Shown here: piece by piece, positions 7,258 through 23,143 of the stretch
Layout: every line of letters begins with the position of its first letter
Numbering within the stretch: the first letter of the stretch is position 1
Assembly: GCA_963823995.1 (NCBI GenBank)
Contig: CAWGNQ010000005.1
Location: 514,510 to 578,509, forward strand
DNA: 64,000 nucleotides
Source of the DNA: an uncultured Acidobacteriota bacterium
GTDB taxonomy: Bacteria > Acidobacteriota > UBA6911 > RPQK01 > JAPXNP01
Direction: 5' to 3'
The notes under the pieces: generated by a model
Database searches by the model: none
Told to the model about the DNA's origin: nothing
The model's input: only the letters and a program-made list of their open reading frames with translations
Translations under genes and position numbers: made by a program

Positions 7258-7464
7258 TTACCTGGATTCGAAGCAGCTGCGGCCTGCTTTGCAACCTTGC
7301 TTGTCGGCGACTTTGCCGTCAGGTCCCAGGCAGTTCATGGTGTGTGTACACCAGTAGATACCGTCGCTCATGTTCGGGATGCGCGGATCCGGCTCGGCCT
7401 CGATGAACATTCCCTTGGATCGCAGGCGCCGGCAGATGTCCCGGCCGACTCTCTCCATGACCAT
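7258..7464 (-). CDS. Small cysteine-rich protein (68 aa, 5 Cys) translationally coupled to the 3' end of the molybdoenzyme operon; function unknown
   Basis: ATG at 7464 overlaps the TAA stop of the FAD subunit by 1 nt. GC3-rich codons. Cys pattern C11, C39, C45, C58, C64 (YWCTHTMNCLGPDGKVADKQGCKAGRSCF). No family recognised by eye. Confidence 0.45.
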   Translation of the reverse strand: MVMERVGRDICRRLRSKGMFIEAEPDPRIPNMSDGIYWCTHTMNCLGPDGKVADKQGCKAGRSCFESR

Positions 7465-8444
7465 TACGTTACCTCCATTCCTGCGGCCCTCAGGACGGCC
7501 CGCTTGACCGCCACCCTTGCGAGGGTCACTTTATAGCCGTTCTTGCTCAGCGGCTTCGCGCCCTGAACAGCCGCGGCGCCGGCCGCCTCGGCGGTCTGAA
7601 CGCTGACGGACTGGCCCGTCAGCGCCTGGCCCGCCGCCGGAACCGGCCACGGCTTGGGAGCCACCTGGCCGAGCACTACTTCGGCCGACTGGACGTTATT
7701 GCCGTTCATCTCCAGCACGGCCACTGCCACGACCAACGGCCAGTCCATGGCTTCCCGCTCGCGGACCTCGTAGACGGCCGCCTTTCGGTTGGCTGCTGGA
7801 GGGATCAGGATCCCGGTAACGATCTCATCGTCGGCCAGATCATATTCCTTCTGGCCTTCTGCTGTCGGGATCTTGAAGAAATCGGCGACAGCCACCTGGC
7901 GGCTGCCACCGGTTCCCTGGATACCGACCTTGGCCCCGTAGGCAATCAGAGCAGGCGCCAGGGTGGAAGGGTTCACAAAGTAGGCAGGACCGGAGTTGCC
8001 GAGGATGGCATGGTATCGGTTGTCCCCGTTCACCACCATCGACTTGCCATCCTGCATCGCCAGGAGTCCATAGCCGTGACGGTAGTACCAGCAGCGCGGA
8101 CGCTGGCACAGGTCACCGCCCACCGTTCCCATGCTCTCCAGCTGCGGGCTGCGTACTCCGTCGGCTGCCTGAACGAGCGCCGGATAGCGCTCGCCGATGA
8201 GGGAGTTGCTCATCAGCTCATCCAGCGTTACCAGCGCGCCGATCCGGACTCCCTGGTCGCCATTGTCCTGGATCCCCTCGAGATCCGCGATCGACTTGAT
8301 ATTGACGAGGCGCTTCGGAGCGGCAACCCCCTGCTTCATGAGGCTGAGCAGATCCGTGCCACCGGCCAGGACCGCGGCATCCAACCCAAGTAGCTTGACC
8401 GCAGTTTCGACCGTGTTCGGGCTCGCATATTCGAATGTGTTCAT
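7464..8444 (-). CDS. Xanthine dehydrogenase family, FAD-binding medium subunit (CoxM/PaoB-like)
   Basis: FAD-binding PCMH motif LAGGTDLLSLMKQG. ATGA overlap with the large-subunit stop at 8444. Confidence 0.9.
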   Translation of the reverse strand: MNTFEYASPNTVETAVKLLGLDAAVLAGGTDLLSLMKQGVAAPKRLVNIKSIADLEGIQDNGDQGVRIGALVTLDELMSNSLIGERYPALVQAADGVRSPQLESMGTVGGDLCQRPRCWYYRHGYGLLAMQDGKSMVVNGDNRYHAILGNSGPAYFVNPSTLAPALIAYGAKVGIQGTGGSRQVAVADFFKIPTAEGQKEYDLADDEIVTGILIPPAANRKAAVYEVREREAMDWPLVVAVAVLEMNGNNVQSAEVVLGQVAPKPWPVPAAGQALTGQSVSVQTAEAAGAAAVQGAKPLSKNGYKVTLARVAVKRAVLRAAGMEVT

Positions 8445-10573
8445 CAGGCTGCTCCTCCTTTCTCGAGCGCCTGCAGGACCCGGTCCGGGGTCAATGGCAG
8501 GTGGGGAACACGAACGCCGACGGCATTCGCCACGGCGTTGGAGATCGCCGCACCGGGCGAAATGACGGGCGGCTCTCCCAGGCCGATGACACCGCGTTCG
8601 TCGTAGCCCGGACCCGTCATCATGTGGACGACGAGATCGCCGATGTCCCCGATGCCGGCGAGCTTGTAGAACTCCATGTCGTCATTGAGAAGACGTCCGG
8701 TAATGGGATCCATAACCCGTTCTTCCATCAGCGAGTAGGTGATGCCCATTATCATGGCCCCGTAGACCTGGCTACGCGCCGTCAGGATATCGATGATCAG
8801 CCCGCAATCCTGGACGGCCACCATCTTGTTGATGCGGACTCGTCCGGTTTCGGTGTCGACGCTGACGTCGGCCATCTGGATCCCTCCGACACCGCTGTCG
8901 ATCAGGTTACCTGGGCCGGGGTTGCGGCCCACCACACTGATCGGAGTCGCACCCAGAAGGCCGGTGGCCGTCTTCCAGCTCATTGACCGGCTCGGGTCGC
9001 TCCTGACCTGGACCCGGTAATTGACGAGTTCGAGCTCCTCCGGCTTGGCATCCAGTTCCTCGCCGATTCTGAGCAGCAGAGCATCAAGCGCCATCAGGGC
9101 CGCGCGGCGTGAGGAAGAACTGACACCACCGACGGTTGTGCTTCCGCCGGAGGCCCCGGAAGCGGGGAACCGGCTGTCGCCGATGCGAACCGTAATATCC
9201 TTTGGCTGCAATCCAAATGCGTCTGCCACGACCGTGGCGATGACCGTTCTCGTTCCCGTCCCGAGATCCTGGCTGCCGAGCCGGATCTCGACCGACGAAT
9301 CAGGGTTGATCACGAGCTCACAGTTGCTCTGATGCCCACGACCGCCCCAGGTATGAAGCGACAGACCAAGCCCGCGTTTGACGGGGCCGTCTCCATTCTG
9401 GCCCCGGGGCTTCCAGGCATTCTTCCACCCGATCAGATCCGCACCCAGCTTCAACTCTTCCGCGTAGGAGTCTGCGAGCTGTCCCGTCATCTGGATGTTC
9501 TTGAGGAAGAAATCGAGCGGGTCCATGTCGATGGCCGCCGCGGCATCCTCGAGCGCAGCCATCGTGATGAGGCAGGCCTGAGGATGGTTGGGAGCTCTCC
9601 AGGCCCGCGAGGGTCCGGTATTGGTCGGAACCGAGGTGTGCTGGTGCCTGCGGTTCGGGACCTCGAAGACATACGGTAGTGGTGGACTGCCGGCACCGCC
9701 GGGTCCACCCGTCCCCCAGGACTCGGACGTCCAGGCTGCGATCTCGCCGGTCGATTTGACTCCGACCTTGACGTTCGCGTAGGCGGACGGACGTCCGCCC
9801 GCCACCTGCAACTCGGCATCCCGATCCAGCATCAGCTTGACCGGACGCTTGGTCAACTTGGCAAGTCGCGCACACTCGATGCCCCAGCGATCGGCGCTGA
9901 ACTTGCTGCCGAATCCACCCCCCATGTGGTGGCACAGGACACGGACATTGGCTGCCGGAATCTCCAGGGCTTCGGCGAACTGGCCGGGGATGACACTGAC
10001 GCCCTGAGTCGACTCATACACCACAAGGTGCTGGTCGTCTTCCCAGTAGGCAGTCGTGCCGTGGGCCTCCATGCAGCAGTGAGAGATCAATGCGAGGCCG
10101 TAGTCGCCGTCCGAGACTTTGTCGGCTCCGGTCATTCCGGCGTCCGGCTCGCCGACCGTCTCCGCCTGGGCTGCCTGGGCGTTCGGCGCAGCATCCTTCT
10201 TTTCGGCATCGAGAAAATGAGACAGTACTTCGTACTCCACCTTGATCGCCGCCAGGGCATCACGGGCAAGCTCTTCGGTGTCGGCAGCCACGGAGGCGAT
10301 CTCGTCGGCGGCCCACTGAATCTCCGTGCCCGCACCCTGGATCACGTGCACTGCCCTGACGCCGTCCATCTGCTCGGCCGCCGAGGTGTCGATGCTCACG
10401 ATCCGAGCGTGCGCGTGAGGGCAGGTCAGCATCTTGGCGTGCAGGAGCCCGTAGAGATTGACGTCGTACGTATATTGAGCCGCGCCCGTAGACTTGACCG
10501 GCCCATCGATACGTCGGGTTTCGCGCCCTATCCACCAGCGTTGGTCTTCTGAAGGCCAGCTGTACTCAGGCAT
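8444..10573 (-). CDS. Xanthine dehydrogenase family, molybdopterin-binding large subunit (CoxL/PaoC-like)
   Basis: About 709 aa with typical aldehyde-oxidase/XDH Mo-binding domain composition. Start is the ATG at 10573 (MPEYSWPSEDQ...), overlapping the small-subunit stop (ATGCCTGA), with GGAGGG RBS. The ORF track extends it spuriously to 10867. Confidence 0.9.
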   Translation of the reverse strand: MPEYSWPSEDQRWWIGRETRRIDGPVKSTGAAQYTYDVNLYGLLHAKMLTCPHAHARIVSIDTSAAEQMDGVRAVHVIQGAGTEIQWAADEIASVAADTEELARDALAAIKVEYEVLSHFLDAEKKDAAPNAQAAQAETVGEPDAGMTGADKVSDGDYGLALISHCCMEAHGTTAYWEDDQHLVVYESTQGVSVIPGQFAEALEIPAANVRVLCHHMGGGFGSKFSADRWGIECARLAKLTKRPVKLMLDRDAELQVAGGRPSAYANVKVGVKSTGEIAAWTSESWGTGGPGGAGSPPLPYVFEVPNRRHQHTSVPTNTGPSRAWRAPNHPQACLITMAALEDAAAAIDMDPLDFFLKNIQMTGQLADSYAEELKLGADLIGWKNAWKPRGQNGDGPVKRGLGLSLHTWGGRGHQSNCELVINPDSSVEIRLGSQDLGTGTRTVIATVVADAFGLQPKDITVRIGDSRFPASGASGGSTTVGGVSSSSRRAALMALDALLLRIGEELDAKPEELELVNYRVQVRSDPSRSMSWKTATGLLGATPISVVGRNPGPGNLIDSGVGGIQMADVSVDTETGRVRINKMVAVQDCGLIIDILTARSQVYGAMIMGITYSLMEERVMDPITGRLLNDDMEFYKLAGIGDIGDLVVHMMTGPGYDERGVIGLGEPPVISPGAAISNAVANAVGVRVPHLPLTPDRVLQALEKGGAA

Positions 10574-11195
10574 GGTGCCCTCCTTTCCCCGCCGCCTCCA
10601 GAATGGCATCCCGGATCCCCATATAGGTCCCGCAGCGGCAGAAGTTACCCCCCAGCCCCTTCTCGATCTCTTCGAGCGAGGGGTTGGGATTTCGATCGAG
10701 AAACGCTTTGGAGGCCACGACGAATCCTGGCGTGCAAAAACCGCACTGCTGGGCGTCGTTGTCGACGAACGCCCGCTGCATGGGATGCATGTCCTCCGGT
10801 GTTCCGAGCCCTTCGATCGTGACGATCTGATGTCCCATGGCTTCGATGGCCAGTACCGAGCAAGCATAGACCGGTTTATCGTCCATCAAAACCGTGCAGG
10901 CCCCACAGGTCCCACGGTCGCACACCTTTTTGGTTCCGGTCAGATCCAGAACGTCTCGAAGGGTGTCGAGCAACGTGACCCGAGGCTCCACTTCAAGCTG
11001 GTGGACCTTTCCGTTGATGCTGAGCTGGATCGGGACCTTGCCGGGTCCCAAAATCTGCGTTCCTGCCTCACTTTTCGCGAGTCCGGCTTGCTGCGAGATG
11101 AGTGCGGCAGAGACGGCACCGGCCGTGCCGCTCCTGAAAAAGTCTCGGCGAGACAGGCCGGAGCCATTCTGCTCAGGTTTCTTGTCCTTGGGCAT
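10566..11195 (-). CDS. Xanthine dehydrogenase family, [2Fe-2S] small subunit with TAT signal peptide (PaoA-like, periplasmic)
   Basis: Twin-arginine motif SRRDFFRSGTAGAVSAAL. Two 2Fe-2S cysteine clusters (CDRGTCGACTV and CGFCTPG...CRCGTY). Confidence 0.9.
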   Translation of the reverse strand: MPKDKKPEQNGSGLSRRDFFRSGTAGAVSAALISQQAGLAKSEAGTQILGPGKVPIQLSINGKVHQLEVEPRVTLLDTLRDVLDLTGTKKVCDRGTCGACTVLMDDKPVYACSVLAIEAMGHQIVTIEGLGTPEDMHPMQRAFVDNDAQQCGFCTPGFVVASKAFLDRNPNPSLEEIEKGLGGNFCRCGTYMGIRDAILEAAGKGGHHA

Positions 11196-11834: not shown

Positions 11835-12422
11835 ATGAGTACTTTGGTAAGCGTACGAGACAACGTTCTGGGAGATTTCGAAGATTTGTCGAAGGCCGAG
11901 CGACAGGAATTGATGGCACTTGGACTGCTTTCAACAGCGGGCTCGGTCCGGCCGTTTCGCGAGGCGCCTCACGAACCCGGGTTTTCATCGGTCGAACGCC
12001 AGGCTGTCTGCGCCCCGTCGGTGCTCAACGAGGCCTCTGAATACGGGTCCGCCTTTTCGCGGGGGCTTCGTCTGGAGCTTGACTCCTATGCGCTGATCTT
12101 CATCTCGGGCACGGCCAGTGTCGATGAGGTCGGCAATACGGTGCACAAGGGAGATCTCCGAGCGCAGTGCTGGAGGACTTACCGGAACATTACGGAACTC
12201 CTGGCAGCCCAGGGGGCGACTTGGCGGGACGTGGTCAAGTGCACCTGCTACCTCCGCGACATCGAGCGTGATTACGACGAATTCAATCGAGTGCGCACCA
12301 CCTTCTTCGATTACCTCCAACTGAATCCCCTTCCCGCCAGCGTCGGCATCCAGGCGCGGCTCTGTCGGGAAGACCTGCTGGTGGAAATCGAAGCGATCGC
12401 CATTCTCAAGAAAGAAAAGTAG
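11835..12422 (+). CDS. RidA/YjgF/L-PSP family protein with N-terminal extension
   Basis: C-terminal 130 aa show the Rid fold pattern (ISGTASVD...CYLRDIERDYDEFNRVRTTFF). GAGGAGGG RBS before the ATG at 11835. Confidence 0.85.
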   Translation: MSTLVSVRDNVLGDFEDLSKAERQELMALGLLSTAGSVRPFREAPHEPGFSSVERQAVCAPSVLNEASEYGSAFSRGLRLELDSYALIFISGTASVDEVGNTVHKGDLRAQCWRTYRNITELLAAQGATWRDVVKCTCYLRDIERDYDEFNRVRTTFFDYLQLNPLPASVGIQARLCREDLLVEIEAIAILKKEK

Positions 12423-12591: not shown

Positions 12592-14547
12592 ATGAAGCGT
12601 CACGATCGCCTGCTCTTCCGGTTCCTTCTGATCCTGGCGATCGGAGCCTGTCCGTCTGTGCTCGGCTCGGACAAGGGACGGCAAGATTCGCTGGTCTTCG
12701 TCGAAGTTTCCCCAACCTCGCTTTCGGGCCTCCGACCCGAGCGGACTGCGACCCTGCGGTCCGACGTGTGCTCGGGCGCCCATCTGGTCCGCTGGAACCC
12801 AACCGGAGAGAAGAAGGTCCTGAGCGCCGGCTTTGAGAGCGCCTGCGAACCGGATGTCTCATTCGACGCCCGCCATATTCTGTTCGCCGGCCGGCGTCAT
12901 GCCGGAGACGCCTGGAACATCTTCGAGATCGACGTCGATGGTCGGAATCTGCGGCAGATCACCCGCGAGGCCGGGAATTGCCGTCAGCCTCGATATCTAT
13001 CGAACTACTATGTCATTACGGCGGACGAGCCCTGGCTGCAGATCCTGTTTGTCAGCGATGCGGCGGGCGAGTTGAATGAGAAAGGAGACTGCCCCGCGAC
13101 CGACCTCTACTCCTGCCGGATCGACGGATCCGAGATCCGGCGTGTCACCTACAATCCGTCCGCGGACCTCGATCCTTTCCTGATGTGGGACGGACGGATC
13201 CTCTTTTCGAGCTGGCAAAGCTCCCTGCCCCGTTTCGGAAGCCGGGGGCGGATGCGGATCTTCGCCATGAACGTCGATGGGACCGACCTCACCGCCTTCA
13301 CCGCGGAACAGGGGCTTCGGGTGCAGCGGATGCCCGCGGTGACTTCAGAGGGGCTGGCAGTGTTCGTCGAGTCGAACGAGACGGTGCCGGATGGCGGGGG
13401 GCAACTAGGCCGCGTCGAACTGCGCAGGAACCTCCACAGCTACCGCTCGCTGACCGGACCCTCCGACGGCCTGTTCCACACTCCGTCGCCACTTCCCGAC
13501 GGCTCGCTACTGGTCTCCTGGCGCGCAAACAACGCCTCGCAGCCGTATGCCCTGTTCCGGTTCGACCCTGAAACCTCGAAGCTCGAGCCGCTCTACAGTG
13601 ACCCGTCACGACACCTCCTACAGGGTCATGTACTCCGCCCCCGACCGCGACCGGATGGCCGCTCGAGCGTGGTCAACGACGCTCACCCTTACGGTCAGTT
13701 CTATGCCCTCAATATCGGAATCAACGACTTGACCGACCCATCCTGGCTCGCACCGCCGACGGCCCGGCGGATTCGGGTCATCGAAGGGCTTCCCCGGCAT
13801 GTGTCCGATCCACCCCCGTCGGTGGGATCCCCCTACCTTCCCGGACGGATCCTGGGGGAAGCTCCGATCCACGAAGACGGATCGTTCTTCTTCGAGGTTC
13901 CGGCCAATCTGCCGATTCAGCTCCAACTGCTGGATCAGAGCGGAATGGCCCTGCGCAGCTGCGGCTGGATCTGGGTACGCAACAAGGAACCCCGCGGGTG
14001 TATCGGATGTCACGAGGACGGCGAGCGCACGCCTCCCAATCGTCTCGTCGAAGCCGTCGAGACGCCCCCGGTGCGACTCACGCTTCCCGCACCGCAGAGA
14101 CGTTTCGTGGATTTCGACCGGGACGTCCTTCCGGTCATCGCCTCCGGCTGTGCAACGGAAGCCTGTCACGGAAACGAATCGAACCGGCTCGACCTGAAGC
14201 CGACCGCCTCCGGTCCGCGCACGCCCGGATATTCGGCCCGGGTCTATACAAAGCTCGCCGAGGGTCTGGGTGCAGACGATGATCCGACGCGCGGTCGCTG
14301 GATCCATCCCGGCGAAGCGCGGACAAGTCCCCTGATCTGGCATCTGCTCGGTCGGAGCGTCTCGCGACCGTGGGATCCCGTTCCGGCCCATCCCGAGAGG
14401 ATTCCTGTCGGAGGGTCCCCCCTGTTGCAGCCCGCACAGCTTCGCGTGTTCGTCGAGTGGATCGACCTCGGAGCGCAGGGAAGTTCCCGCGTCGCAGATG
14501 CCGCCCGGCGTGCAGTTGCGCCCGCCCCTTCAGGAGCAAACGAATGA
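12592..14547 (+). CDS. Secreted PD40/TolB-like beta-propeller fused to a PSCyt1-type (Planctomycete cytochrome c) domain
   Basis: Signal peptide MKRHDRLLFRFLLILAIGACPSVLG. Propeller repeats. C-terminal CIGCH (CxxCH), then DVLPVIASGCATEACHGNESNRLDL, which matches the PSCyt1 consensus but with CX4CH. GGAG RBS before the ATG at 12592. The stop overlaps the next start (ATGA). Confidence 0.8.
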   Translation: MKRHDRLLFRFLLILAIGACPSVLGSDKGRQDSLVFVEVSPTSLSGLRPERTATLRSDVCSGAHLVRWNPTGEKKVLSAGFESACEPDVSFDARHILFAGRRHAGDAWNIFEIDVDGRNLRQITREAGNCRQPRYLSNYYVITADEPWLQILFVSDAAGELNEKGDCPATDLYSCRIDGSEIRRVTYNPSADLDPFLMWDGRILFSSWQSSLPRFGSRGRMRIFAMNVDGTDLTAFTAEQGLRVQRMPAVTSEGLAVFVESNETVPDGGGQLGRVELRRNLHSYRSLTGPSDGLFHTPSPLPDGSLLVSWRANNASQPYALFRFDPETSKLEPLYSDPSRHLLQGHVLRPRPRPDGRSSVVNDAHPYGQFYALNIGINDLTDPSWLAPPTARRIRVIEGLPRHVSDPPPSVGSPYLPGRILGEAPIHEDGSFFFEVPANLPIQLQLLDQSGMALRSCGWIWVRNKEPRGCIGCHEDGERTPPNRLVEAVETPPVRLTLPAPQRRFVDFDRDVLPVIASGCATEACHGNESNRLDLKPTASGPRTPGYSARVYTKLAEGLGADDDPTRGRWIHPGEARTSPLIWHLLGRSVSRPWDPVPAHPERIPVGGSPLLQPAQLRVFVEWIDLGAQGSSRVADAARRAVAPAPSGANE

Positions 14548-16187
14548 GCCTTCCATGCAACAGAGTCCTGCTCCCGGTGGTCCTGGTCCTGACCATGTCC
14601 GGACCGGCAACAGCAGCCGATCAGGCGGAACCACTCCCCGTATTCACCGACATCACGGAACCGTCCGGAATCCGCTTCAAACACAGCTATGGCGACTTCG
14701 ACCTCACGAACATTGTCGAGGGGACCGGGGCCGGCGCCTGTCTGTTCGACTATGACGCAGACGGCTGGCTGGACATCTACTTCCCCAACGGCGCCTGGGA
14801 GAAAGCCATCAACGACAACCGCGGTCGAAAGCTGCGAGGGAAGCTCTTCAATGCCCTCTACCGAAACAACCATGACGGGACCTTCTCGGACGTCACGGAT
14901 CGGGCCGGCGTTGGTGACCCGAGTCCGAGTTTCGGCTGCTCGACCGCGGACTTCGATGCGGACGGGGATCTGGATCTGTATGTCCTCAATTACGGACCGA
15001 ACGTCCTCTACCGCAATAACGGAGACGGCACCTTTGCCGACGTGTCCGCCGCCAGCGGTCTTGCAGATGCCCGCTGGAGCCTTTCCGCACCCTGGTTCGA
15101 CTATGACAACGACGGCCATCTGGACGTCTACGTAGCAAACTACCTTAAATACGATGACGGCAAGTTCCGTGCATACTATGCGGCGTCCGGTTATCCGGGT
15201 CCGCTCAGTTATAGTGCCGAACCGGACGCGCTTTACCGCAACAACGGGGACGGGACGTTCACGGACGTCACGAAAGAGGCCGGCCTCTACAAAGACAACG
15301 GTCGCGCCATGAGCGCTACCGTGGCCGATCTCAATGGCGACGGCTACCTCGACATCTACGTGGCCAACGACGCCACCGAGAACTACTACTTCGAAAACAC
15401 GGGCAAAGCCACATTCGTCGAAAAGGGACTCAACCTCGGACTCGCCTTCGGCGAACACGGGCAGGGCGTCTCCTCCATGGGCCCCTTCGCAGGAGACATC
15501 GATCGTAACAATCTTCTGGACATCTATATTCCGGACATGGGGTACAGCAGTCTCCTGATGAATCAGGGAGAGTTCTTCGAAGACTGGACCACTCACTCGA
15601 AGGTTGCCGTCTCCTGCGGGCAGTACACGGGCTGGGGTGGACTCCTGCTCGACTACGACAACGACGGCTATCTCGACCTGTTCGTGTCGAACGGCAACGC
15701 CCATCACGAGTACACCGAGGAGGACGTCCTCCTGCGCAATGAGGGGGCCGGAGTCTTTGCCGACGTCTCCGACCGCTCGGGTGACTATTTTCGTGTCAAG
15801 AAGGTGGGCCGGGGCTCGACGTTCGGGGATATCGACAATGACGGGGACCTGGACATCCTGGTCGTCAATCTGAACAATACGCCCAATCTCCTTCGCAATG
15901 ACGGAGGAAATCGCAACCACTGGCTCGCCGTGCTGCCCCGCCTGACCGGCCCGTCACGGGATGCAATCGGTGCCCGCGTCACTGTGACCGCCGGCTCGCT
16001 GACCATGATCGAAGACCTGATTCCGGTCCGCGGGTACCTGTCGCAGATGGACCCACGGCTCCATTTCGGCCTGGGCCAGGCCGAGCAGGCCGATTCGGTG
16101 GAGATCCGCTGGCCCGGTGGTGAGGTACAACGGCTCGAAAACGTGAAGGCGAATCAGTTCCTCGAGGTGGTTCGCGGCGCTCAGTGA
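14544..16187 (+). CDS. CRTAC1-family protein (FG-GAP/VCBS repeats plus ASPIC/UnbV C-terminal domain), secreted
   Basis: Repeated YRNNGDGTF-DVT and DYDNDGxLD motifs. C-terminal UnbV-like RWPGG...QRL. Signal peptide MSLPCNRVLLPVVLVLTMSGPATAA. AGGAG RBS. Confidence 0.85.
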   Translation: MSLPCNRVLLPVVLVLTMSGPATAADQAEPLPVFTDITEPSGIRFKHSYGDFDLTNIVEGTGAGACLFDYDADGWLDIYFPNGAWEKAINDNRGRKLRGKLFNALYRNNHDGTFSDVTDRAGVGDPSPSFGCSTADFDADGDLDLYVLNYGPNVLYRNNGDGTFADVSAASGLADARWSLSAPWFDYDNDGHLDVYVANYLKYDDGKFRAYYAASGYPGPLSYSAEPDALYRNNGDGTFTDVTKEAGLYKDNGRAMSATVADLNGDGYLDIYVANDATENYYFENTGKATFVEKGLNLGLAFGEHGQGVSSMGPFAGDIDRNNLLDIYIPDMGYSSLLMNQGEFFEDWTTHSKVAVSCGQYTGWGGLLLDYDNDGYLDLFVSNGNAHHEYTEEDVLLRNEGAGVFADVSDRSGDYFRVKKVGRGSTFGDIDNDGDLDILVVNLNNTPNLLRNDGGNRNHWLAVLPRLTGPSRDAIGARVTVTAGSLTMIEDLIPVRGYLSQMDPRLHFGLGQAEQADSVEIRWPGGEVQRLENVKANQFLEVVRGAQ

Positions 16188-16206: not shown

Positions 16207-19062
16207 ATGCGACTCAGATTGCTGCAGTTGATGCTTGGCGGCGCACTTCTGTTGACCGGCTTGGCACTGGGCCAGAGCCAGAAGGAACCGATCTATGTAG
16301 GAGCTCGGGCCTGCGGTCAGTGTCACGACGGCCCGGGAATGGGGCATCAGTTCAGCCAGTGGATCGTCTCGAAGCACGCCCGCGCCTACGCCGTCCTGTC
16401 CAAGCCCGAAGCCAAAGAGATCGCCCGTCTGAGCGGAATTCCGCAGGAGCCGCAGGAGTCCGCGATGTGCCTCGGGTGTCACGCCACGGGAGCCGAGGTC
16501 GAGGATTGGGAACGCGAAGACGGGTTCCGGATCGAAGACGGTGTCCAATGCGAGAAATGTCACGGGGCCGGCAGCGAATATATGGACGCTGAGGTGATGA
16601 AGAATCCCGACGCGGCCATGCGTGCCGGTCTGCGCAAGATCCGGCTGTCCGATTGTCAGATGTGTCACAACGAGAAGGGTTCTCACGTAGCCGTGCACAA
16701 GCTCCCGAAGCTGGATATGGAGGAAGCCTGGAAACGCCTGGCCCATCCGATGCCGGAGAATCCCACCACGGCCACCGTCGAGATCCCGACGGGTCAGGCC
16801 AGTGAGGGGTCCGCCGGACACAAGTTCGTAGGAGCCCACGCCTGCGGGTCCTGCCACCGCTCCGCCTCGATGGGATTTCAATGGAGCCGTTGGCGCTTGT
16901 CTGCGCATTCTGGAGCCTTTGGGCGCCTTGCGACCGAACAGGCCTATGCTGTTGCCCGCGAAGCAGGAGTCGAGGGTAATCCCCAGGAGAGCCCACAGTG
17001 TCTCCGATGTCATACGACCGGAGGAGGCGATCTTTCCGGCGCGCTGCCCTCCTTCACGCTCGACGAGGGCGTCGGATGCGAGGCTTGTCACGGCCCTGGG
17101 AGCGACTATCAAGCAGAAGCCGTGATGCGGGACGGGACCGCCGCCACCCAGGCCGGTCTTCAGATTGCCGATCGGGAGAAATGCCTCACCTGCCACGACG
17201 AGGCCCACGGGAAGCCCTTCGATTACGCCGCAGCCTGGAAGAAGATCGCGCATCCCAACGCCCCGCCGGAAGTGGTCCGGGAGGTCCGCTACAAGAATCC
17301 GCTGAACCTGGCCCTGTCACCCGACGGGAAGGAGCTCTACGTGACCTGCGAGGCTTCCGATTCCGTCATCGTGATCGATGCCGTGGCACATCGCAAGGTG
17401 GCCGAAATCCCGGTAGGAGGACAGCCTCATGATGTCGCGTTCAGCCCCGACGGTCGGTTCGCGTATGTCACGAACCGGCTCGACGACAGCCTTTCGGAGA
17501 TCGACACCACGACTCGTACCGTGACACGGACGGCACCGGTCGGCGACGAACCTCATGCACTCCTCACCAATCGGGAGGGGAACCGGATCTACGTGCTCAA
17601 CTCGTCGGAAGACAGCATCTCCATTCTCGACTCTTCGACGCTTCAGGAAGTCAAACGGCTGACCGCCAGCCGTTATCCCTGGTCGATGGCGCTCTCGCCC
17701 GACGGAGAACAGCTCCTGGTCACCAATTCCCTCTCGCGGTTCGTCCCGTTCCGGACATCCTCAGTTTCGGAACTGACCGTGGTCGGTACAGAGCGGAACC
17801 TCGTCGATGATCGCTACGCCGTCGACGGCACCAACCTGCTGCAGGGCGTGACCTGGCACCCGAGTGGAGACTACGCCCTCTTTACGCTGCTTCGTACCAA
17901 GAACCTGGTACCCATGACCCGGTTGGCGCAGGGCTGGACGATCACGAACGGGCTGGGTATCGCCTGGAAGGACGGCCGGATCGACCAGGTTCTGCTCGAC
18001 GAGCCGGACATGTGCTTCCCGGATCCGGCCGGCGTCGCCATTTCTCCCGATGGCCGGTATGCTTTCGTGACCAGTGCGAGTCTCGACCGTGTCGCGGTCG
18101 TCGACCTCGCAAAGCTGGTCGGCATTCTGCAGTCCGTGTCGGATGCAGAGCGGAAACAAGTGATCCCCAACCACCTTGGATTTCCGACCGAGTTCATCGT
18201 CAAGAGGATACCGACCCGCCACAGCCCGCGGGGGGTGGTCTTCAGTGCGGACGGCCGGACCGCGTTCGTCGCCAACTGCCTTGACGATTCGATCACCACG
18301 ATCGACGTCGCGTCACTCGAAGCCACCGAGCGGATCGATCTGGGTGGACCGAAGAAGATCACGAAGGCCCGACTGGGTGAACAGCTTTTCCACAATGCCA
18401 AGATCACGTTCCACCGCGAGTTCTCTTGCCACTCCTGTCATCCCGACGGCCATGTGGACGGAATCACGTATGACATCGAACCGGACGGCGTCGGCGTCAG
18501 CCCGGTCGACAACCGGACGCTGCGGGGCATTCTCGATACGGCTCCCTTCAAATGGGAAGGTACCAACCCCAGCCTGCAACGCCAGTGCGGTCCGCGCCTC
18601 GCTGTCTTCTTCACCCGGATTCAGCCTTTTACACCGGAAGAACTGTCGGCACTCGATCTCTACATTTCCACCATCACCCGACCACCCAACCGATACCGGC
18701 CCCTGGGAGCCGAACTCACTCCCGCCCAGCGCCGCGGACGGGCGGTCTTCGAAAGAACCGTGACGAACGACGGTCGGCTTCTGCTTCCGGAGCAGCAGTG
18801 CGTTTTCTGTCATCCGCCACCGCTCTATACGAACCGACGGAAGTTCGACGTCGGAACGCGGATGCAGTACGACCGCGAGGTCCGGTTCGATGTTCCGCAC
18901 CTCAACAACATCTACGACTCCGCGCCCTATCTACACAACGGAATCGCTCCGACCCTCGAGGAAATCTGGACGGTACACAATCCGAACGACAGCCACGGTG
19001 TGACCAACGATCTGACCAAGGATCAGCTCAACGATTTGATCGAGTACATCAAGACGTTCTGA
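16207..19062 (+). CDS. Multi-domain c-type cytochrome: two tandem tetraheme modules (8 CxxCH), a YVTN-type beta-propeller, and a C-terminal di-heme cytochrome c peroxidase/MauG-like domain (2 CxxCH)
   Basis: N-terminal CxxCH motifs CGQCH, CLGCH, CEKCH, CQMCH, CGSCH, CLRCH, CEACH, CLTCH, arranged as an internal duplication of ~175 aa. Central repeats of the SPDG..YVTN type (ALSPDGKELYVT, AFSPDGRFAYVTN, ALSPDGEQLLVTN, AISPDGRYAFVTS, VFSADGRTAFVAN). C-terminal FSCHSCHPDG ... CVFCHPPPLYT resembles the CCP/MauG fold. Signal peptide present. Confidence 0.85.
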   Translation: MRLRLLQLMLGGALLLTGLALGQSQKEPIYVGARACGQCHDGPGMGHQFSQWIVSKHARAYAVLSKPEAKEIARLSGIPQEPQESAMCLGCHATGAEVEDWEREDGFRIEDGVQCEKCHGAGSEYMDAEVMKNPDAAMRAGLRKIRLSDCQMCHNEKGSHVAVHKLPKLDMEEAWKRLAHPMPENPTTATVEIPTGQASEGSAGHKFVGAHACGSCHRSASMGFQWSRWRLSAHSGAFGRLATEQAYAVAREAGVEGNPQESPQCLRCHTTGGGDLSGALPSFTLDEGVGCEACHGPGSDYQAEAVMRDGTAATQAGLQIADREKCLTCHDEAHGKPFDYAAAWKKIAHPNAPPEVVREVRYKNPLNLALSPDGKELYVTCEASDSVIVIDAVAHRKVAEIPVGGQPHDVAFSPDGRFAYVTNRLDDSLSEIDTTTRTVTRTAPVGDEPHALLTNREGNRIYVLNSSEDSISILDSSTLQEVKRLTASRYPWSMALSPDGEQLLVTNSLSRFVPFRTSSVSELTVVGTERNLVDDRYAVDGTNLLQGVTWHPSGDYALFTLLRTKNLVPMTRLAQGWTITNGLGIAWKDGRIDQVLLDEPDMCFPDPAGVAISPDGRYAFVTSASLDRVAVVDLAKLVGILQSVSDAERKQVIPNHLGFPTEFIVKRIPTRHSPRGVVFSADGRTAFVANCLDDSITTIDVASLEATERIDLGGPKKITKARLGEQLFHNAKITFHREFSCHSCHPDGHVDGITYDIEPDGVGVSPVDNRTLRGILDTAPFKWEGTNPSLQRQCGPRLAVFFTRIQPFTPEELSALDLYISTITRPPNRYRPLGAELTPAQRRGRAVFERTVTNDGRLLLPEQQCVFCHPPPLYTNRRKFDVGTRMQYDREVRFDVPHLNNIYDSAPYLHNGIAPTLEEIWTVHNPNDSHGVTNDLTKDQLNDLIEYIKTF

Positions 19063-19095: not shown

Positions 19096-20334
19096 ATGCA
19101 ACCAACACTGAGGCAATCCACGCGGTGGTTCCTCGGCTTGATCTCCGCCGGCGCGCTTAGCTGTTCCGGTCTTTCGGCTGGAGTCGAGGATACCCCGGCA
19201 GTCGATGCACCTGAACTACCCTACGTCTATACCGATTGGGTTCAATACACGACGAAGGAGGGTCTTCCGAACGATCACATCTTCTCGGTGGCGGCGGCCT
19301 CGACGGAAATCTGGGTCGGCACCGAGGATGGCCTGGCGGTGATCGACAAACAGACCGGGAAGGTCAAGAAGACCTGGAAGATGGAAGACGGCCTGCCCTG
19401 GAAGGTCGTCGCGGGCATTGCCGTCAACGAAAAGACCGGTGAAGTCTGGCTGGCCCTTTTCGGCGGAGGTCTGGCCCGCTACTCGGCGGGACGATTCGAC
19501 CACTGGCATCAGTTGAACAGCGGACTCGTCAACGACGTCGTCTATGGGGTCGCGCTCGAAGGGGACAACGTCTGGTGCGCCACGACGGCCGGAGCCAGCC
19601 GCTATAACACCGTCTCCGGAGAATGGACCATCTTCAACGAGAAGAATGCTCCGATGGAGGAGATCTGGAACTACGGCGTCTCCTACAACGACGGCAAGGT
19701 CTACCTCGGCGTCTGGGGCAGCGGTGTGCTCGAATACGACGTCGCTCGCGGAACCTGGAAAGATTACCTCGACCCGGACGGCGAGATGGAAATCGATCTC
19801 TACCGCGACGACGGGATCGTCCACGTGATCACGACCGGAACCAGCTATATCGACGGAATCCTCTGGGTTTCCACTTACTTCGGAGGAAACCGCTACGACG
19901 GCCGCCACTGGCGGGGCTACTATTCGCAGGAGACCGGCCTGCCGAGTGACTTCATCAACGCCGTCAAAGGCCGTAGCGCCGACGAGGCCTGGTTCTGTAC
20001 GGACAAGGGGGTCGGGGTCGTCACCGATTTCACATCGGATACCTGGGTTACTTATACGATGGATCCCGAAACTCACGAAGGCATCGCCGTCGTCTCGCGG
20101 GGAACTGACGTGCTCAAGACGCTGAGGACACCCTCGGGCATTCCCCACAACTACACACTGTGTGCAGACGTCGATGGCAAGGACGTCTGGGTGGGGACGT
20201 CCAAAGGCCTGGCTCGAGGTGTCGGCCGCGATTACTTTGCCGGCCTGCGCGCCTTCCAGAGCCAGCCGGAGAGTCCGAACGGAACGCAAGCCGGTGACCC
20301 TGCGAAGAGCACTGCTCGTTCGAACAGAAAGTAG
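19096..20334 (+). CDS. Secreted two-component-regulator-propeller (Reg_prop) repeat protein with no kinase domain
   Basis: Repeats of the GT.DGLAVID, WVGTSKGLAR and VWCATTAGASRY type. Signal peptide MQPTLRQSTRWFLGLISAGALSCSG. ATG at 19096 with AGGAAAGG RBS. Confidence 0.75.
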   Translation: MQPTLRQSTRWFLGLISAGALSCSGLSAGVEDTPAVDAPELPYVYTDWVQYTTKEGLPNDHIFSVAAASTEIWVGTEDGLAVIDKQTGKVKKTWKMEDGLPWKVVAGIAVNEKTGEVWLALFGGGLARYSAGRFDHWHQLNSGLVNDVVYGVALEGDNVWCATTAGASRYNTVSGEWTIFNEKNAPMEEIWNYGVSYNDGKVYLGVWGSGVLEYDVARGTWKDYLDPDGEMEIDLYRDDGIVHVITTGTSYIDGILWVSTYFGGNRYDGRHWRGYYSQETGLPSDFINAVKGRSADEAWFCTDKGVGVVTDFTSDTWVTYTMDPETHEGIAVVSRGTDVLKTLRTPSGIPHNYTLCADVDGKDVWVGTSKGLARGVGRDYFAGLRAFQSQPESPNGTQAGDPAKSTARSNRK

Positions 20335-20340
20335 GTTGCC

Positions 20341-21930
20341 ATGAAAACGAAAGACCTGATAGACAGCCGGAAAATCGTAGCCCGGCCGCCGCAGGCTGCC
20401 GGACTCGACGGCGGCTCCGCCGCGCGCATCCTTTTCGGAGCTGCGCTCCTCCTGATGGTATTGGGCGCAGTAGATGTTGTCGGACTTGCACAGGTCGCGC
20501 CCGAGAGTGAGAAGATCGACATTCTTCCGCCCGAGGAACTGCTTCCCCCGCTCGGAGTTGACGATCCGGCGGTTGCCAAGGTACTCGAAAAGCTGAACGC
20601 CCTCACCCCTTACGAGGTGCCGGATCTCGGATTGAAGCAGGAGAGCAACTACGCCAACACGGCCGTGGACGTCGAGCCGTTTCGGGGAGTCAAACCATTC
20701 AAGGAACACTTCCTCCTTCAGATGGAGTACACCGGCCCCGGCCGTACGATCCCGGAGCCGGAAAATCTCGGCTCGGTCAAGCTCGGCTTTATCGGGCCGA
20801 TCATGTCCACCGTCAGCGTGGCGACCGGCGGCAAGAGCCACGAAGAACCGCTGGGGATCCAGATGCTGCGCGGCTGCCGACTGGCGATCGAACAGGCCAA
20901 TGCCCGCGGCGGCTACCTCAAGCGGCACCTTCCTTTCGAACTCGTGATCAGCAACGACAACGGTTTGTGGGGTGCCTCGGGGAACGAAATCATCAAGATG
21001 GCCTACGATCAACACGTCTGGGCCATCCTCGGGACGATCGACGGAGCCAACAGCCACATCGCAATCCGGGTCGCACTGAAGGCCGAGGTCGCGATGATGA
21101 ACTCGGGCGATACGGACCCAACGTTCATCGAAACGAATATCCCGTGGGTATTTCGCTGCATCAGTGACGACCGCCAGATGGGCTATCTCCTGGTCGACTT
21201 CCTGTACCGCAAGCTGGGGTTCGAACGGGTGGGGATCATTCGGGCCTCCAACCGATACGGCCGCTTTGGAGTGCGCGAGGTGCGTGACGGCAGTCGTCGC
21301 ATGGAGAAACCGATCACGCTGGAGATGGCCTACCGTCTCGGTGAAGATGACTTCTCGCTCCAGTTGGAACGTCTCAATGCCACGCACCCCGATGCGATCG
21401 TGCACTGGGGTGACGCAGCCGAAGGAGCACTGATCCTCAATCAGATGCGCAAGATGGGCATGAACCAGCCGTTCTTTGGCTGCGATCGGCATGTCTCCCC
21501 AGAGTTCGTCGAGAATGCCGGCAAGAATGCCGAGGGCGTCTGGGCAGTCTACCCCTGGAACCCTGAGCGACCGGATCCGAAACTGGCCGCCTTCCGGGAA
21601 ATCTTTCACAGGCGGTTCGGAGTCGATGCGGATACCTACGCCGCGCATGCCTATGACGGTATGAACATGCTCATCTGGGCCACCCAGGTTGCCGGTCTGA
21701 ATCGGGCGCGCGTCCGCGATGTCCTGGCCTACCGTGCCAAACCCTGGCCGGGTGTCACCGGAAACATCGCCATGAGCGCCGCGCTCGACGACGTGGGCGA
21801 GGTCTCTCTGGCCCACTTCGAAGACGGGCACTGGAAGTACTACACACGCGAGGAGCTCGAAATCCCTCGTGGCCATATTCCAGCCCGGGATCGGGTCAGT
21901 CGTGAAACCTCCGATACGGAAAACCGCTAA
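20341..21930 (+). CDS. Periplasmic binding protein, LivK/branched-chain amino acid ABC-type family (Peripla_BP_6)
   Basis: Type I periplasmic binding protein fold features along the length. N-terminal hydrophobic anchor or signal. Starts 6 nt after the preceding stop. Confidence 0.85.
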   Translation: MKTKDLIDSRKIVARPPQAAGLDGGSAARILFGAALLLMVLGAVDVVGLAQVAPESEKIDILPPEELLPPLGVDDPAVAKVLEKLNALTPYEVPDLGLKQESNYANTAVDVEPFRGVKPFKEHFLLQMEYTGPGRTIPEPENLGSVKLGFIGPIMSTVSVATGGKSHEEPLGIQMLRGCRLAIEQANARGGYLKRHLPFELVISNDNGLWGASGNEIIKMAYDQHVWAILGTIDGANSHIAIRVALKAEVAMMNSGDTDPTFIETNIPWVFRCISDDRQMGYLLVDFLYRKLGFERVGIIRASNRYGRFGVREVRDGSRRMEKPITLEMAYRLGEDDFSLQLERLNATHPDAIVHWGDAAEGALILNQMRKMGMNQPFFGCDRHVSPEFVENAGKNAEGVWAVYPWNPERPDPKLAAFREIFHRRFGVDADTYAAHAYDGMNMLIWATQVAGLNRARVRDVLAYRAKPWPGVTGNIAMSAALDDVGEVSLAHFEDGHWKYYTREELEIPRGHIPARDRVSRETSDTENR

Positions 21931-23143
21931 CGTTCCCGCTTGGGCAACCTGTCTTGCGGCGGCCCTGGTAGTCATGGCCGGTCCGGCCGGTCGGTCCGGT
22001 CCGCTCTGGGGACAGGATGACCCGGCCCCGTTTTTCGACGGGCGAAAGGCCGTACACGACTATGCGGGACCGGGCCGGGACGATCCGATCCCGGACGACC
22101 TGAGTGAGATCCGCATCGGCTACTTCGGACCGGACGACCCGGACGATCCCAACCACGGCGATCTGTGGTTGGCGGCCTGCATGGCGGTCGACGAGATCAA
22201 CGCCGCCGGGGGATATCACGGCATGCCCTTTCGACTGTTGCCGGCCTGGTCGGAAAATCCCTGGGGCAGCGGAGTCAGCAGGATGGCGCGCATGGTCTTC
22301 GGTGAGCGGATCCTGGCCGTGATCGGAGGAGCCGACGGGGCCACCGCCCATCTGGCCGAACAGATCGTCGCCAAAGCTCTCCTGCCGCTCCTGAATCCGG
22401 GGTCGACCGATCGCACGGCGAACCTCGCACATGTGCCCTGGATCTTCTCCTGCCTTCCCGGGGGCCGGGCGGAAGCTGTCGTCGTCGCCGACAGTCTGCT
22501 CGACGACGTCGGCGCCAAGCCCTTCCTGCTGATCTCCGCGACGGACCACGATTCCCGGGCCCTGACGGAAGAAGTGCGCGATGAACTCGCCGGGCGGGGC
22601 ATGGCACCGGCACGTCATCTCGAGGTTGACTCCGCTGAAGGGCGCGATCTGACGATTCTCTCGTCCGGACTTCTTTCGGAGATCGGTCCGGCGGCTGTCG
22701 TATTGATCGCCGGACCTGCGGTCTCGGCCCGCGTTCTGGCGCGAATCCGACCCTACTTCGACGGCCCGGTCTACGGCTCCTCATCCCTGGCACGGACTGC
22801 TTTTCGACGGCTGGTCGGAGACGACCACGGGATACTTCGCTTTGCTTTCCCCGCCGATTTCGCAGGCGTCGAGACGTTCTCCCGACATTTCCATGACGTC
22901 TACGGGCGCGACGCCGATTTTGCAGCGGCCCAGACCTACGATGCCCTTCATCTGTTCGCGGCGGCTCTCGAACGGTCGGGGCCGAATCGTGCGCGTCTGG
23001 GAGACGCACTGCGGAGCCTCTCGCCCTGGCATGGTGCAGCCGGGCCGATCGAGTGGGACAAGACCGGACAAAACACACGCCCTATGACGATGGCAACGCT
23101 CGAGAATGGCCGGATTCGACCATTGAACGGAACGGGCAGGTGA
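21869..23143 (+). CDS. Second LivK-type periplasmic binding protein (Peripla_BP_6)
   Basis: Paralogous to the previous gene. Signal peptide NVPAWATCLAAALVVMAGPAG. Start is either the ATG at 21869 or the GTG at 21902, both overlapping the upstream gene. No ABC permease or ATPase anywhere in the window. Confidence 0.8.
   Translation: MAIFQPGIGSVVKPPIRKTANVPAWATCLAAALVVMAGPAGRSGPLWGQDDPAPFFDGRKAVHDYAGPGRDDPIPDDLSEIRIGYFGPDDPDDPNHGDLWLAACMAVDEINAAGGYHGMPFRLLPAWSENPWGSGVSRMARMVFGERILAVIGGADGATAHLAEQIVAKALLPLLNPGSTDRTANLAHVPWIFSCLPGGRAEAVVVADSLLDDVGAKPFLLISATDHDSRALTEEVRDELAGRGMAPARHLEVDSAEGRDLTILSSGLLSEIGPAAVVLIAGPAVSARVLARIRPYFDGPVYGSSSLARTAFRRLVGDDHGILRFAFPADFAGVETFSRHFHDVYGRDADFAAAQTYDALHLFAAALERSGPNRARLGDALRSLSPWHGAAGPIEWDKTGQNTRPMTMATLENGRIRPLNGTGR

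Follow-up and report, generated by a model that had tools for sequence, protein, structure and literature searches.

To our knowledge, hydrazine synthase (HZS) was long believed to have no relatives. We analysed a 64,000-nucleotide stretch of DNA (the window) from an uncultured Acidobacteriota bacterium (assembly GCA_963823995.1, contig CAWGNQ010000005.1, positions 514,510 to 578,509, forward strand), which encodes, within a six-gene cassette, a 951-residue protein with ten haem-binding motifs that resembles the fused beta and gamma subunits of HZS (hereafter the decahaem protein). HZS homologues of this kind have been described as 'clade I' by Hagglund et al. (Genome Biol Evol, Dec 2025, PMC12758564). 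According to that paper, an alpha-like gene lies upstream in clade I, an FG-GAP/CRTAC1 gene in between and two genes for substrate-binding proteins downstream, while the beta-gamma protein is fused and has eight additional haem motifs, classed there as two c554 domains. The same paper reports that gamma-Cys165 is retained, that gamma-His144 is replaced by a Trp of the type found in bacterial cytochrome c peroxidases (CCP) and MauG, and that alpha-Tyr591, alpha-Cys303, alpha-His772 and the Glu of the beta loop are not conserved; the proteins were judged to be non-anammox enzymes and no function was proposed for them. Carriers named there are Syntrophobacter fumaroxidans, Paludibaculum fermentans, Thermogutta terrifontis, Aquisphaera giovannonii and Novipirellula artificiosorum, and some of the hosts are described as obligate anaerobes. 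A 'novel anammox' function had been suggested earlier for similar genes in metagenome-assembled genomes (MAGs) of Phycisphaerae (PMC10732223).

The decahaem protein shares with clade I the fused seven-bladed propeller and dihaem gamma-like domain, the eight N-terminal haems, the gene context, Cys165 and the Trp at position 144; what sets it apart is its origin in an uncultured Acidobacteriota lineage. It is an added member of a described but uncharacterised family, and its architecture is no longer a discovery. New here are the collinear six-gene cassette in about 60 loci, a Reg_prop-type propeller gene as a conserved member of it and a recurring RidA-like gene. The searched parts of PMC12758564 held no mention of the Reg_prop gene, the link to RidA or the Cx4CH motif of the alpha-like partner, and neither the Asp168-to-Arg change nor the conservation of loop 564-582 was found in them. 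Our reading, of moderate confidence, is that the decahaem protein belongs as beta-gamma-type subunit to a periplasmic, HZS-homologous complex, that it is neither a hydrazine synthase nor an ordinary peroxidase, and that it works as proposed below. Compared with the anammox subunits HzsB and HzsC (separate chains in Kuenenia stuttgartiensis, 5C2V; fused in Scalindua), it shows about 26% identity. Unlike anammox HZS, which uses a separate cytochrome partner, it has an octahaem wire fused to it; in addition, the alpha gene precedes beta-gamma here, the alpha-like partner is without Tyr591 ligation, and the hosts are not anammox bacteria.

Domain architecture of the decahaem protein

The open reading frame (ORF) was uninterrupted over 951 codons, and its product carries ten CxxCH motifs, eight in the N-terminal part (Table 1) and two further ones at residues 741 (CHSCH) and 865 (CVFCH). 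Estimated from typical Cys and His frequencies, the chance expectation in 951 residues is far below one. All ten motifs were invariant in an alignment of 51 homologues with 62-88% identity. More than 1,500 homologues were found in metagenomes, the best 120 of which are mostly about 940-990 amino acids (aa) long (range 838-990) and 62-88% identical to the decahaem protein. A chance ORF is ruled out by this strong conservation over many genomes. The initial annotation, made from the sequence alone, had described a 951-aa multihaem fusion with an internal tandem duplication holding eight haems and a propeller of at least five blades, all of which agrees with the results given here.

Residues 30-185 and 186-345 were 40% identical (blastp E 1e-34), with four haem motifs in register in each half, and Pfam Cytochrome_C554 (PF13435) matched in two stretches with 106.9 bits against a cut-off of 20.8. 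Module 2 aligned with cytochrome c554 of Nitrosomonas europaea (1BVB/1FT5), matching its four CxxCH motifs at the same spacing as well as the W..xxH distal-ligand motif; unlike in that cytochrome, the module is doubled here and fused to an enzyme. The cut-off of NCBIfam NF043010, the equivalog model of Nitrosomonas CycA, was not reached (59.7 vs 400 bits). Each module also contains an invariant Met (M131, 16597-16599; M307, 17125-17127) near the position of the c554 distal ligand His102, and an extra conserved His right behind its fourth haem motif. Because of these residues, the haem ligation pattern of c554, including its five-coordinate haem, may not be preserved in the decahaem modules. 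The modules vary among relatives: P0125 has a single N-terminal c554 module (six motifs), P0128 and P0133 have one extra haem, and P0129 (851 aa, from the search of representatives) carries its c554-spaced tetrahaem module behind the beta-gamma unit, C-terminally and not N-terminally. Judged from these sequences, the c554 wire appears to have been gained independently several times, and its occurrence at either end depending on the lineage (N-terminal in one or two copies, C-terminal in P0129) supports a functional link of the module to the beta-gamma enzyme. A literature search on c554 combined with YVTN returned nothing relevant.

The central region matched the YVTN repeats of TIGR02276 with 141 bits against a cut-off of 27.85, and both AlphaFold2 models showed a propeller of 28 strands, corresponding to seven blades, with a predicted local distance difference test score (pLDDT) above 90. 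Residues 364-701 matched the entire HzsB chain (5c2v_B, E 4e-41). Within this propeller, the loop at residues 564-582, TKNLVPMTRLAQGWTITNG, aligned to the tunnel loop of HzsB and is almost invariant in the decahaem clade; its core, KNLVP...GW, is common to beta-gamma-only proteins and resembles PKNWLP of HzsB.

In the PDB search, residues 715-950 matched residues 37-313 of the 314-residue HzsC chain (E 2e-18). A profile of the C-terminal 250 residues, built from 29 family members, returned only chains of the CCP/MauG superfamily from the PDB, with HzsC (5e-28) followed by MbnH (5e-8), CCPs (3e-7 to 1e-4) and BthA (7e-3). The decahaem protein missed the gathering score of Pfam CCP_MauG (PF03150; 22.7 vs 25.6 bits), and scored above the cut-off of the RoxA-like_Cyt-c sub-domain (PF21419; 29.0 vs 26.7). 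Similar to the CCP, MauG and MbnH proteins of this superfamily, it has two CxxCH haems in a helical domain of about 250 residues with a conserved Trp (W783) between them, and these sites are homologous to those of solved members; unlike them, it has one more Cys that links to haem, and a propeller and eight further haems are part of the same chain. The best NCBIfam matches outside the c554 modules were to the HZS beta-gamma fusion, HzsB and HzsC, none of them a peroxidase model. The CCP/MauG-like domain proposed initially was thus placed in the right superfamily, and its specific relative is HzsC.

A first AlphaFold2 run, given the complete sequence and 51 close homologues, produced the c554 modules, the propeller and a dihaem domain with a pLDDT of 30-50; with 100 beta-gamma-only relatives added in a second run, that domain reached 72-96. 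The model of the beta-gamma part reached a pLDDT of 89.7 and a predicted template modelling score (pTM) of 0.92.

Table 1 Features of the decahaem gene and its surroundings, in window coordinates; the last column counts the loci with the gene among those with enough flank
Feature	Position	Strand	Residues and details	Evidence	Loci
Decahaem HZS beta-gamma-like protein, whole gene	16207..19062	+	951 aa	ORF and translation	
Signal peptide	16207-16275	+	1-23	N-terminus MRLRLLQLMLGGALLLTGLALGQSQ	
Cytochrome c554-type tetrahaem module 1	16288..16761	+	~28-185; CxxCH 36/88/115/150	Pfam PF13435, best stretch 35-120	
Cytochrome c554-type tetrahaem module 2	16762..17256	+	~186-350; CxxCH 213/265/291/326	Alignment to 1bvb, E 4e-8	
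Seven-bladed YVTN propeller, HzsB-like	17284..18342	+	~360-712	YVTN repeats, HzsB match, models	
HzsC-like dihaem domain, CCP/MauG superfamily	18343..19059	+	~713-951	Family profile vs PDB, residue mapping, conservation	
Catalytic-type haem of dihaem domain			C741/C744/H745		
Electron-transfer-type haem of dihaem domain			C865/C868/H869		
Key residue W783	18553-18555	+			
Key residue C794	18586-18588	+			
Key residue R797	18595-18597	+			
RidA-like (YjgF/Rid family) protein	11835..12422	+	195 aa; no signal peptide	Pfam Ribonuc_L-PSP	
HzsA-like haem protein	12592..14547	+	651 aa; signal peptide; CIGCH at 470, Cx4CH at 520	Pfam HZS_alpha middle domain 1e-19; 5c2v_A E 3e-38	59/60 (upstream)
FG-GAP / ASPIC-UnbV (CRTAC1-type) propeller protein	14544..16187	+	547 aa; signal peptide	Pfam FG-GAP_3, UnbV_ASPIC	69/69
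Reg_prop-type propeller protein	19096..20334	+	412 aa; exported	4a2l E 6e-19 (PDB)	67/70
LIVBP-type periplasmic binding protein 1 (PBP1)	20341..21930	+	529 aa	Pfam Peripla_BP_6; PDB 4mlc, 4gnr ~1e-19	55/59
Periplasmic binding protein 2 (PBP2)	21869..23143	+		Pfam Peripla_BP_6	46/53

Putative active-site residues, proposed mechanism and alternatives

Residues were mapped onto HZS by HMMER alignments, with the numbering of PMC12758564 and PMC12607021. The third haem-linking Cys of HzsC is kept (gamma-Cys165 corresponds to C794), gamma-Glu122 is conservatively replaced by D760, gamma-His144 by the CCP/MauG-type Trp W783, and gamma-Asp168 by R797. In HZS, Asp168 lies 4 Å from the iron of haem gamma-I and is a proposed proton donor. 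The haem gamma-I pocket formed by Cys165, Asp168 and His144 was matched at the Cys, the other two positions being R797 and W783. Residues W783, R797, K782, D751, D756, D760, N769, H910, W921 and H930 were invariant in 41 decahaem proteins and 100 beta-gamma-only relatives; C794 was present in all 41 of the former and in 90 of the latter. In the tunnel loop, the Glu of HZS corresponds to Arg572. The HzsA-like partner did not match the Tyr591-ligated haem alpha-I with its His587-bound zinc: the HzsA motif CSGCHYGSY reads CIGCHEDGE, so that Tyr591 is absent, and GCIGCHEDxE is conserved in 63 sequences; alpha-His772 was unaligned. The counterpart of the alpha-II motif CAMCH in this partner is a Cx4CH motif (CATEACH, residues 520-526, 14149-14169), with both Cys and the His conserved to at least 95% among 63 members of the family.

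In the mechanism that we propose, the two c554-type modules would serve as a built-in electron wire that replaces the separate cytochrome partner docking on anammox HzsC. We infer that electrons would enter or leave via the C865 haem, which corresponds to the surface-exposed bis-His haem gamma-II, and would move through the invariant Trp783 to the C741 haem. The latter would be the catalytic site, probably with a third covalent link via Cys794 as in HzsC, and its distal pocket would present the invariant Arg797 where HZS has the proton-donating Asp168. The HzsB-like propeller would act as a scaffold, with loop 564-582 sitting where HzsB has the loop gating its tunnel towards the alpha subunit, and the HzsA-like protein would provide a second haem site of canonical His ligation, a small intermediate being handed from haem to haem. 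As to the substrate, our guess is nitric oxide (NO), a small nitrogen oxyanion or a compound of the hydroxylamine type, which might be coupled to an amine or amino-acid-like molecule that the LIVBP-type proteins handle; with an invariant distal Arg instead of the Asp, anions or peroxide-type substrates would fit better than NO alone. The initial annotation had suggested intramolecular electron delivery to a peroxidatic or oxygenating site acting on a propeller-bound ligand. Such a chemistry is conceivable, given the CCP/MauG-type W783, although the HzsC-specific C794 is present as well. Its domain parsing stands and electron delivery to the catalytic haem is reasonable, whereas the propeller-bound ligand is not favoured: by analogy with HzsB, the propeller is more likely a scaffold with an inter-subunit tunnel-gating loop than a ligand site. 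A bolder version, in which the family would form a second, non-anammox branch of HZS-type chemistry, with a self-wired periplasmic enzyme of two haem sites reducing a nitrogen oxide or oxyanion at the triply linked haem, where the distal Arg797 would favour an anion, and the intermediate tunnelled past the propeller gate to the alpha-like haem, there to be coupled with, or cleaved off, an amine or amino-acid-like molecule that the LIVBP-type proteins supply or remove, is speculative and in our view rather doubtful.

Some of the same evidence would also fit a self-wired bacterial CCP, in which the dihaem domain would reduce H2O2 or another peroxide, the c554 haems would feed in the electrons and the neighbouring genes would be unrelated or accessory. 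In favour of it, the dihaem domain is a CCP/MauG-superfamily member whose profile matches several solved CCPs, the Trp between its haems is of the CCP/MauG type instead of the His of HZS, and many homologues have precomputed Pfam CCP_MauG matches. However, in the C-terminal profile search HzsC (5e-28) was far closer than the best solved CCP (3e-7), and MbnH, which ranked between them, is not a peroxidase. The missed CCP_MauG gathering score and the conservation of the HzsC-specific third Cys likewise speak against this reading, some hosts are obligate anaerobes (PMC12758564), and a detoxifying peroxidase would not be expected to sit in a six-gene cassette of strict collinearity, next to two binding proteins and a haem protein of the HzsA type. 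We consider a peroxidase unlikely. A genuine but divergent hydrazine synthase (EC 1.7.2.7), with the host an unrecognised anammox-type organism, is supported by the homologues of all three HZS subunits in one operon, and it is the reading raised for Phycisphaerae MAGs (PMC10732223). It is extremely improbable: every NCBIfam model was missed by a wide range (beta-gamma fusion NF052342, 219 vs 1250 bits; HzsB, 178 vs 560; HzsC, 80 vs 625; hydrazine_alpha on the HzsA-like protein, 173 vs a cut-off of 800), alpha-Tyr591 is absent and alpha-His772 unaligned, and gamma-His144 and gamma-Asp168 are Trp and Arg. The window has 61% GC and neighbour genes of a heterotroph, the Pfam-scanned ORFs (about the first half of the window) included no HAO/HDH or other nitrogen-cycle genes, and PMC12758564 likewise rejects this function for clade I. 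Cryptic anammox was ruled out as a candidate by the missed family cut-offs together with the missing catalytic residues.

Trp783 is invariant as in MauG, and MbnH was the second-best solved match to the C-terminal profile. MauG and MbnH act on proteins encoded beside them, and the very high conservation of the Reg_prop, FG-GAP and PBP1 proteins suggests tight protein-protein contacts. An alternative explanation is thus a MauG/MbnH-like maturase, whose high-valent species would oxidise a residue of a cassette partner (e.g. the FG-GAP, Reg_prop or binding protein) to a cofactor, or would oxidise an amine or amino-acid-like ligand of the LIVBP-type proteins, with electrons leaving via the c554 wire and the RidA-like protein, whose genes recur with the cassette in two clades, handling the imine product. 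We regard this as quite improbable: no residue or motif that could be the target was found, the RidA-like protein lacks a signal peptide and hence belongs to another compartment, and both the HzsA-like haem partner and the conserved loop of HzsB type speak for a two-site enzyme that handles small molecules.

The preferred reading, a beta-gamma-type subunit of an HZS-homologous complex, has several points against it. The residues held essential for HZS differ (gamma-His144, gamma-Asp168, alpha-Tyr591, alpha-His772 and the beta-loop Glu), so the reaction cannot be read off HZS. Synteny alone suggests the complex with the HzsA-like, FG-GAP, Reg_prop and binding proteins, and the cassette encodes no quinol-linked donor or acceptor. 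The models are haem-free, and they do not reliably place the c554 modules against the dihaem domain (full-length pTM 0.62). Two structure searches with the model gave propeller matches only, among the matches listed.

The six-gene cassette and its neighbours

The cassette runs in the order HzsA-like, FG-GAP, beta-gamma, Reg_prop and two LIVBP-type genes, with spacings of -4, 19, 33, 6 and 43 nucleotides and export signals on all six products. It is widespread in bacteria of soils and sediments, was collinear in about 60 loci from several phyla, and the order held in nearly every locus with enough flank (Table 1). The start of the FG-GAP gene accordingly overlaps the stop of the HzsA-like gene by 4 nucleotides, and its product is 60-85% identical between loci. 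Columns at least 95% identical made up 34% of the Reg_prop alignment, the highest value in the cassette, followed by FG-GAP (30%), PBP1 (28%), HzsA-like (14%) and PBP2 (7%). The Reg_prop protein resembles propellers that serve as periplasmic sensors in hybrid two-component systems of Bacteroides. PBP1 has an N-terminal anchor or signal and an extension of about 100 aa, and is 57-87% identical between loci. The start of PBP2 is uncertain: the GTG at 21869 gives a signal-like N-terminus and a 62-nucleotide overlap with the end of the PBP1 gene, while the called ATG at 21974 gives no signal. A promoter and terminator scan over 10.8-23.6 kb found no more sites than in shuffled sequence.

The RidA-like gene was found upstream in 14 of 53 decahaem loci. 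Its product scored below threshold in the NCBIfam models for Rid, RutC and a chorismatase-like protein (C-terminal half of FkbO/Hyg5). It was rejected as a periplasmic partner, as it has no signal peptide, and is a possible cytoplasmic accessory of the cassette. In two beta-gamma-only cassettes (loci L086-L089; Verrucomicrobiae and Terriglobales), a RidA-like gene lies within the cassette, between Reg_prop and a binding protein (L086 11082-11564; L088 11182-11664). A DAHP synthase gene (409 bits, cut-off 335) stands directly before a short HzsA-like gene and overlaps its start (L086 4126-5016; L088 4062-4943), and a LIV-type ABC importer is encoded 1 kb upstream in L088. Such neighbours may tie beta-gamma-only cassettes to shikimate-derived or amino-acid-like compounds, and the binding proteins, like the repeated presence of a RidA-like gene, are a hint that a co-substrate or product may be an amine or resemble an amino acid.

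A three-gene molybdoenzyme of the xanthine dehydrogenase / CO dehydrogenase family (FAD_binding_5, MoCoBD, Fer2_2; 7464-11195, minus strand) adjoins the cassette divergently. This arrangement is repeated in the Acidobacteriota loci L002, L006, L007, L010 and L022, and not in Planctomycetota loci. In the latter (L003 11369-17160; L004 16871-22797), the opposite strand past the cassette encodes a CN_hydrolase (nitrilase/amidase family), one or two FG-GAP/ASPIC paralogues and a TPR protein. Other ORFs of the window, up to about 34 kb, encode a GH9 cellulase, beta-lactamase-fold proteins, a glycogen phosphorylase and peroxiredoxin-like proteins, none of them informative on function.

Distribution and significance of the family

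About 450 stretches in the GTDB species genomes matched the decahaem version. The best 80 of them, 60-89% identical, came from Acidobacteriota, Pirellulales, Phycisphaerae/Sedimentisphaerales, Planctomycetaceae, Thermoguttaceae and one Anaerolineales MAG; the protein of MAG MFD02923.bin.1.166 was 89% identical to the decahaem protein. The same gene order was present in one Acidobacteriota chromosome and in Planctomycetota MAGs. Judging from the 60-89% identity across phyla, the decahaem version is under strong purifying selection. Whether its parts also occur separately, a question raised by the initial annotation, can be answered in the affirmative, given the separate HzsB and HzsC chains, the variants in c554 modules and the beta-gamma-only proteins. 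The latter (about 600-680 aa) form dozens of clusters at 50% identity, with 861 matches for one query, and come from Terriglobales, Bryobacteraceae, Verrucomicrobiae, Gemmatimonadales and Planctomycetota.

HZS homologues provide the only view of how HZS evolved, and they show what else a scaffold with two haem sites can do. Several of the carriers named in PMC12758564 are described, cultured species, which makes the function directly testable. If the enzyme acts on nitrogen oxides or hydroxylamine, an unaccounted reaction would be added to nitrogen cycling in soils and sediments, and a second HZS-type branch, if real, would represent a new enzymatic N-N or N-O transformation that is widespread in heterotrophic Acidobacteriota, Planctomycetota and Verrucomicrobiota of soils and sediments. 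A peroxidase or maturase would still illustrate clearly how a multihaem wire can be fused to an enzyme. This abundant, strongly conserved family is relevant to where the hydrazine synthase scaffold came from and how versatile it is.

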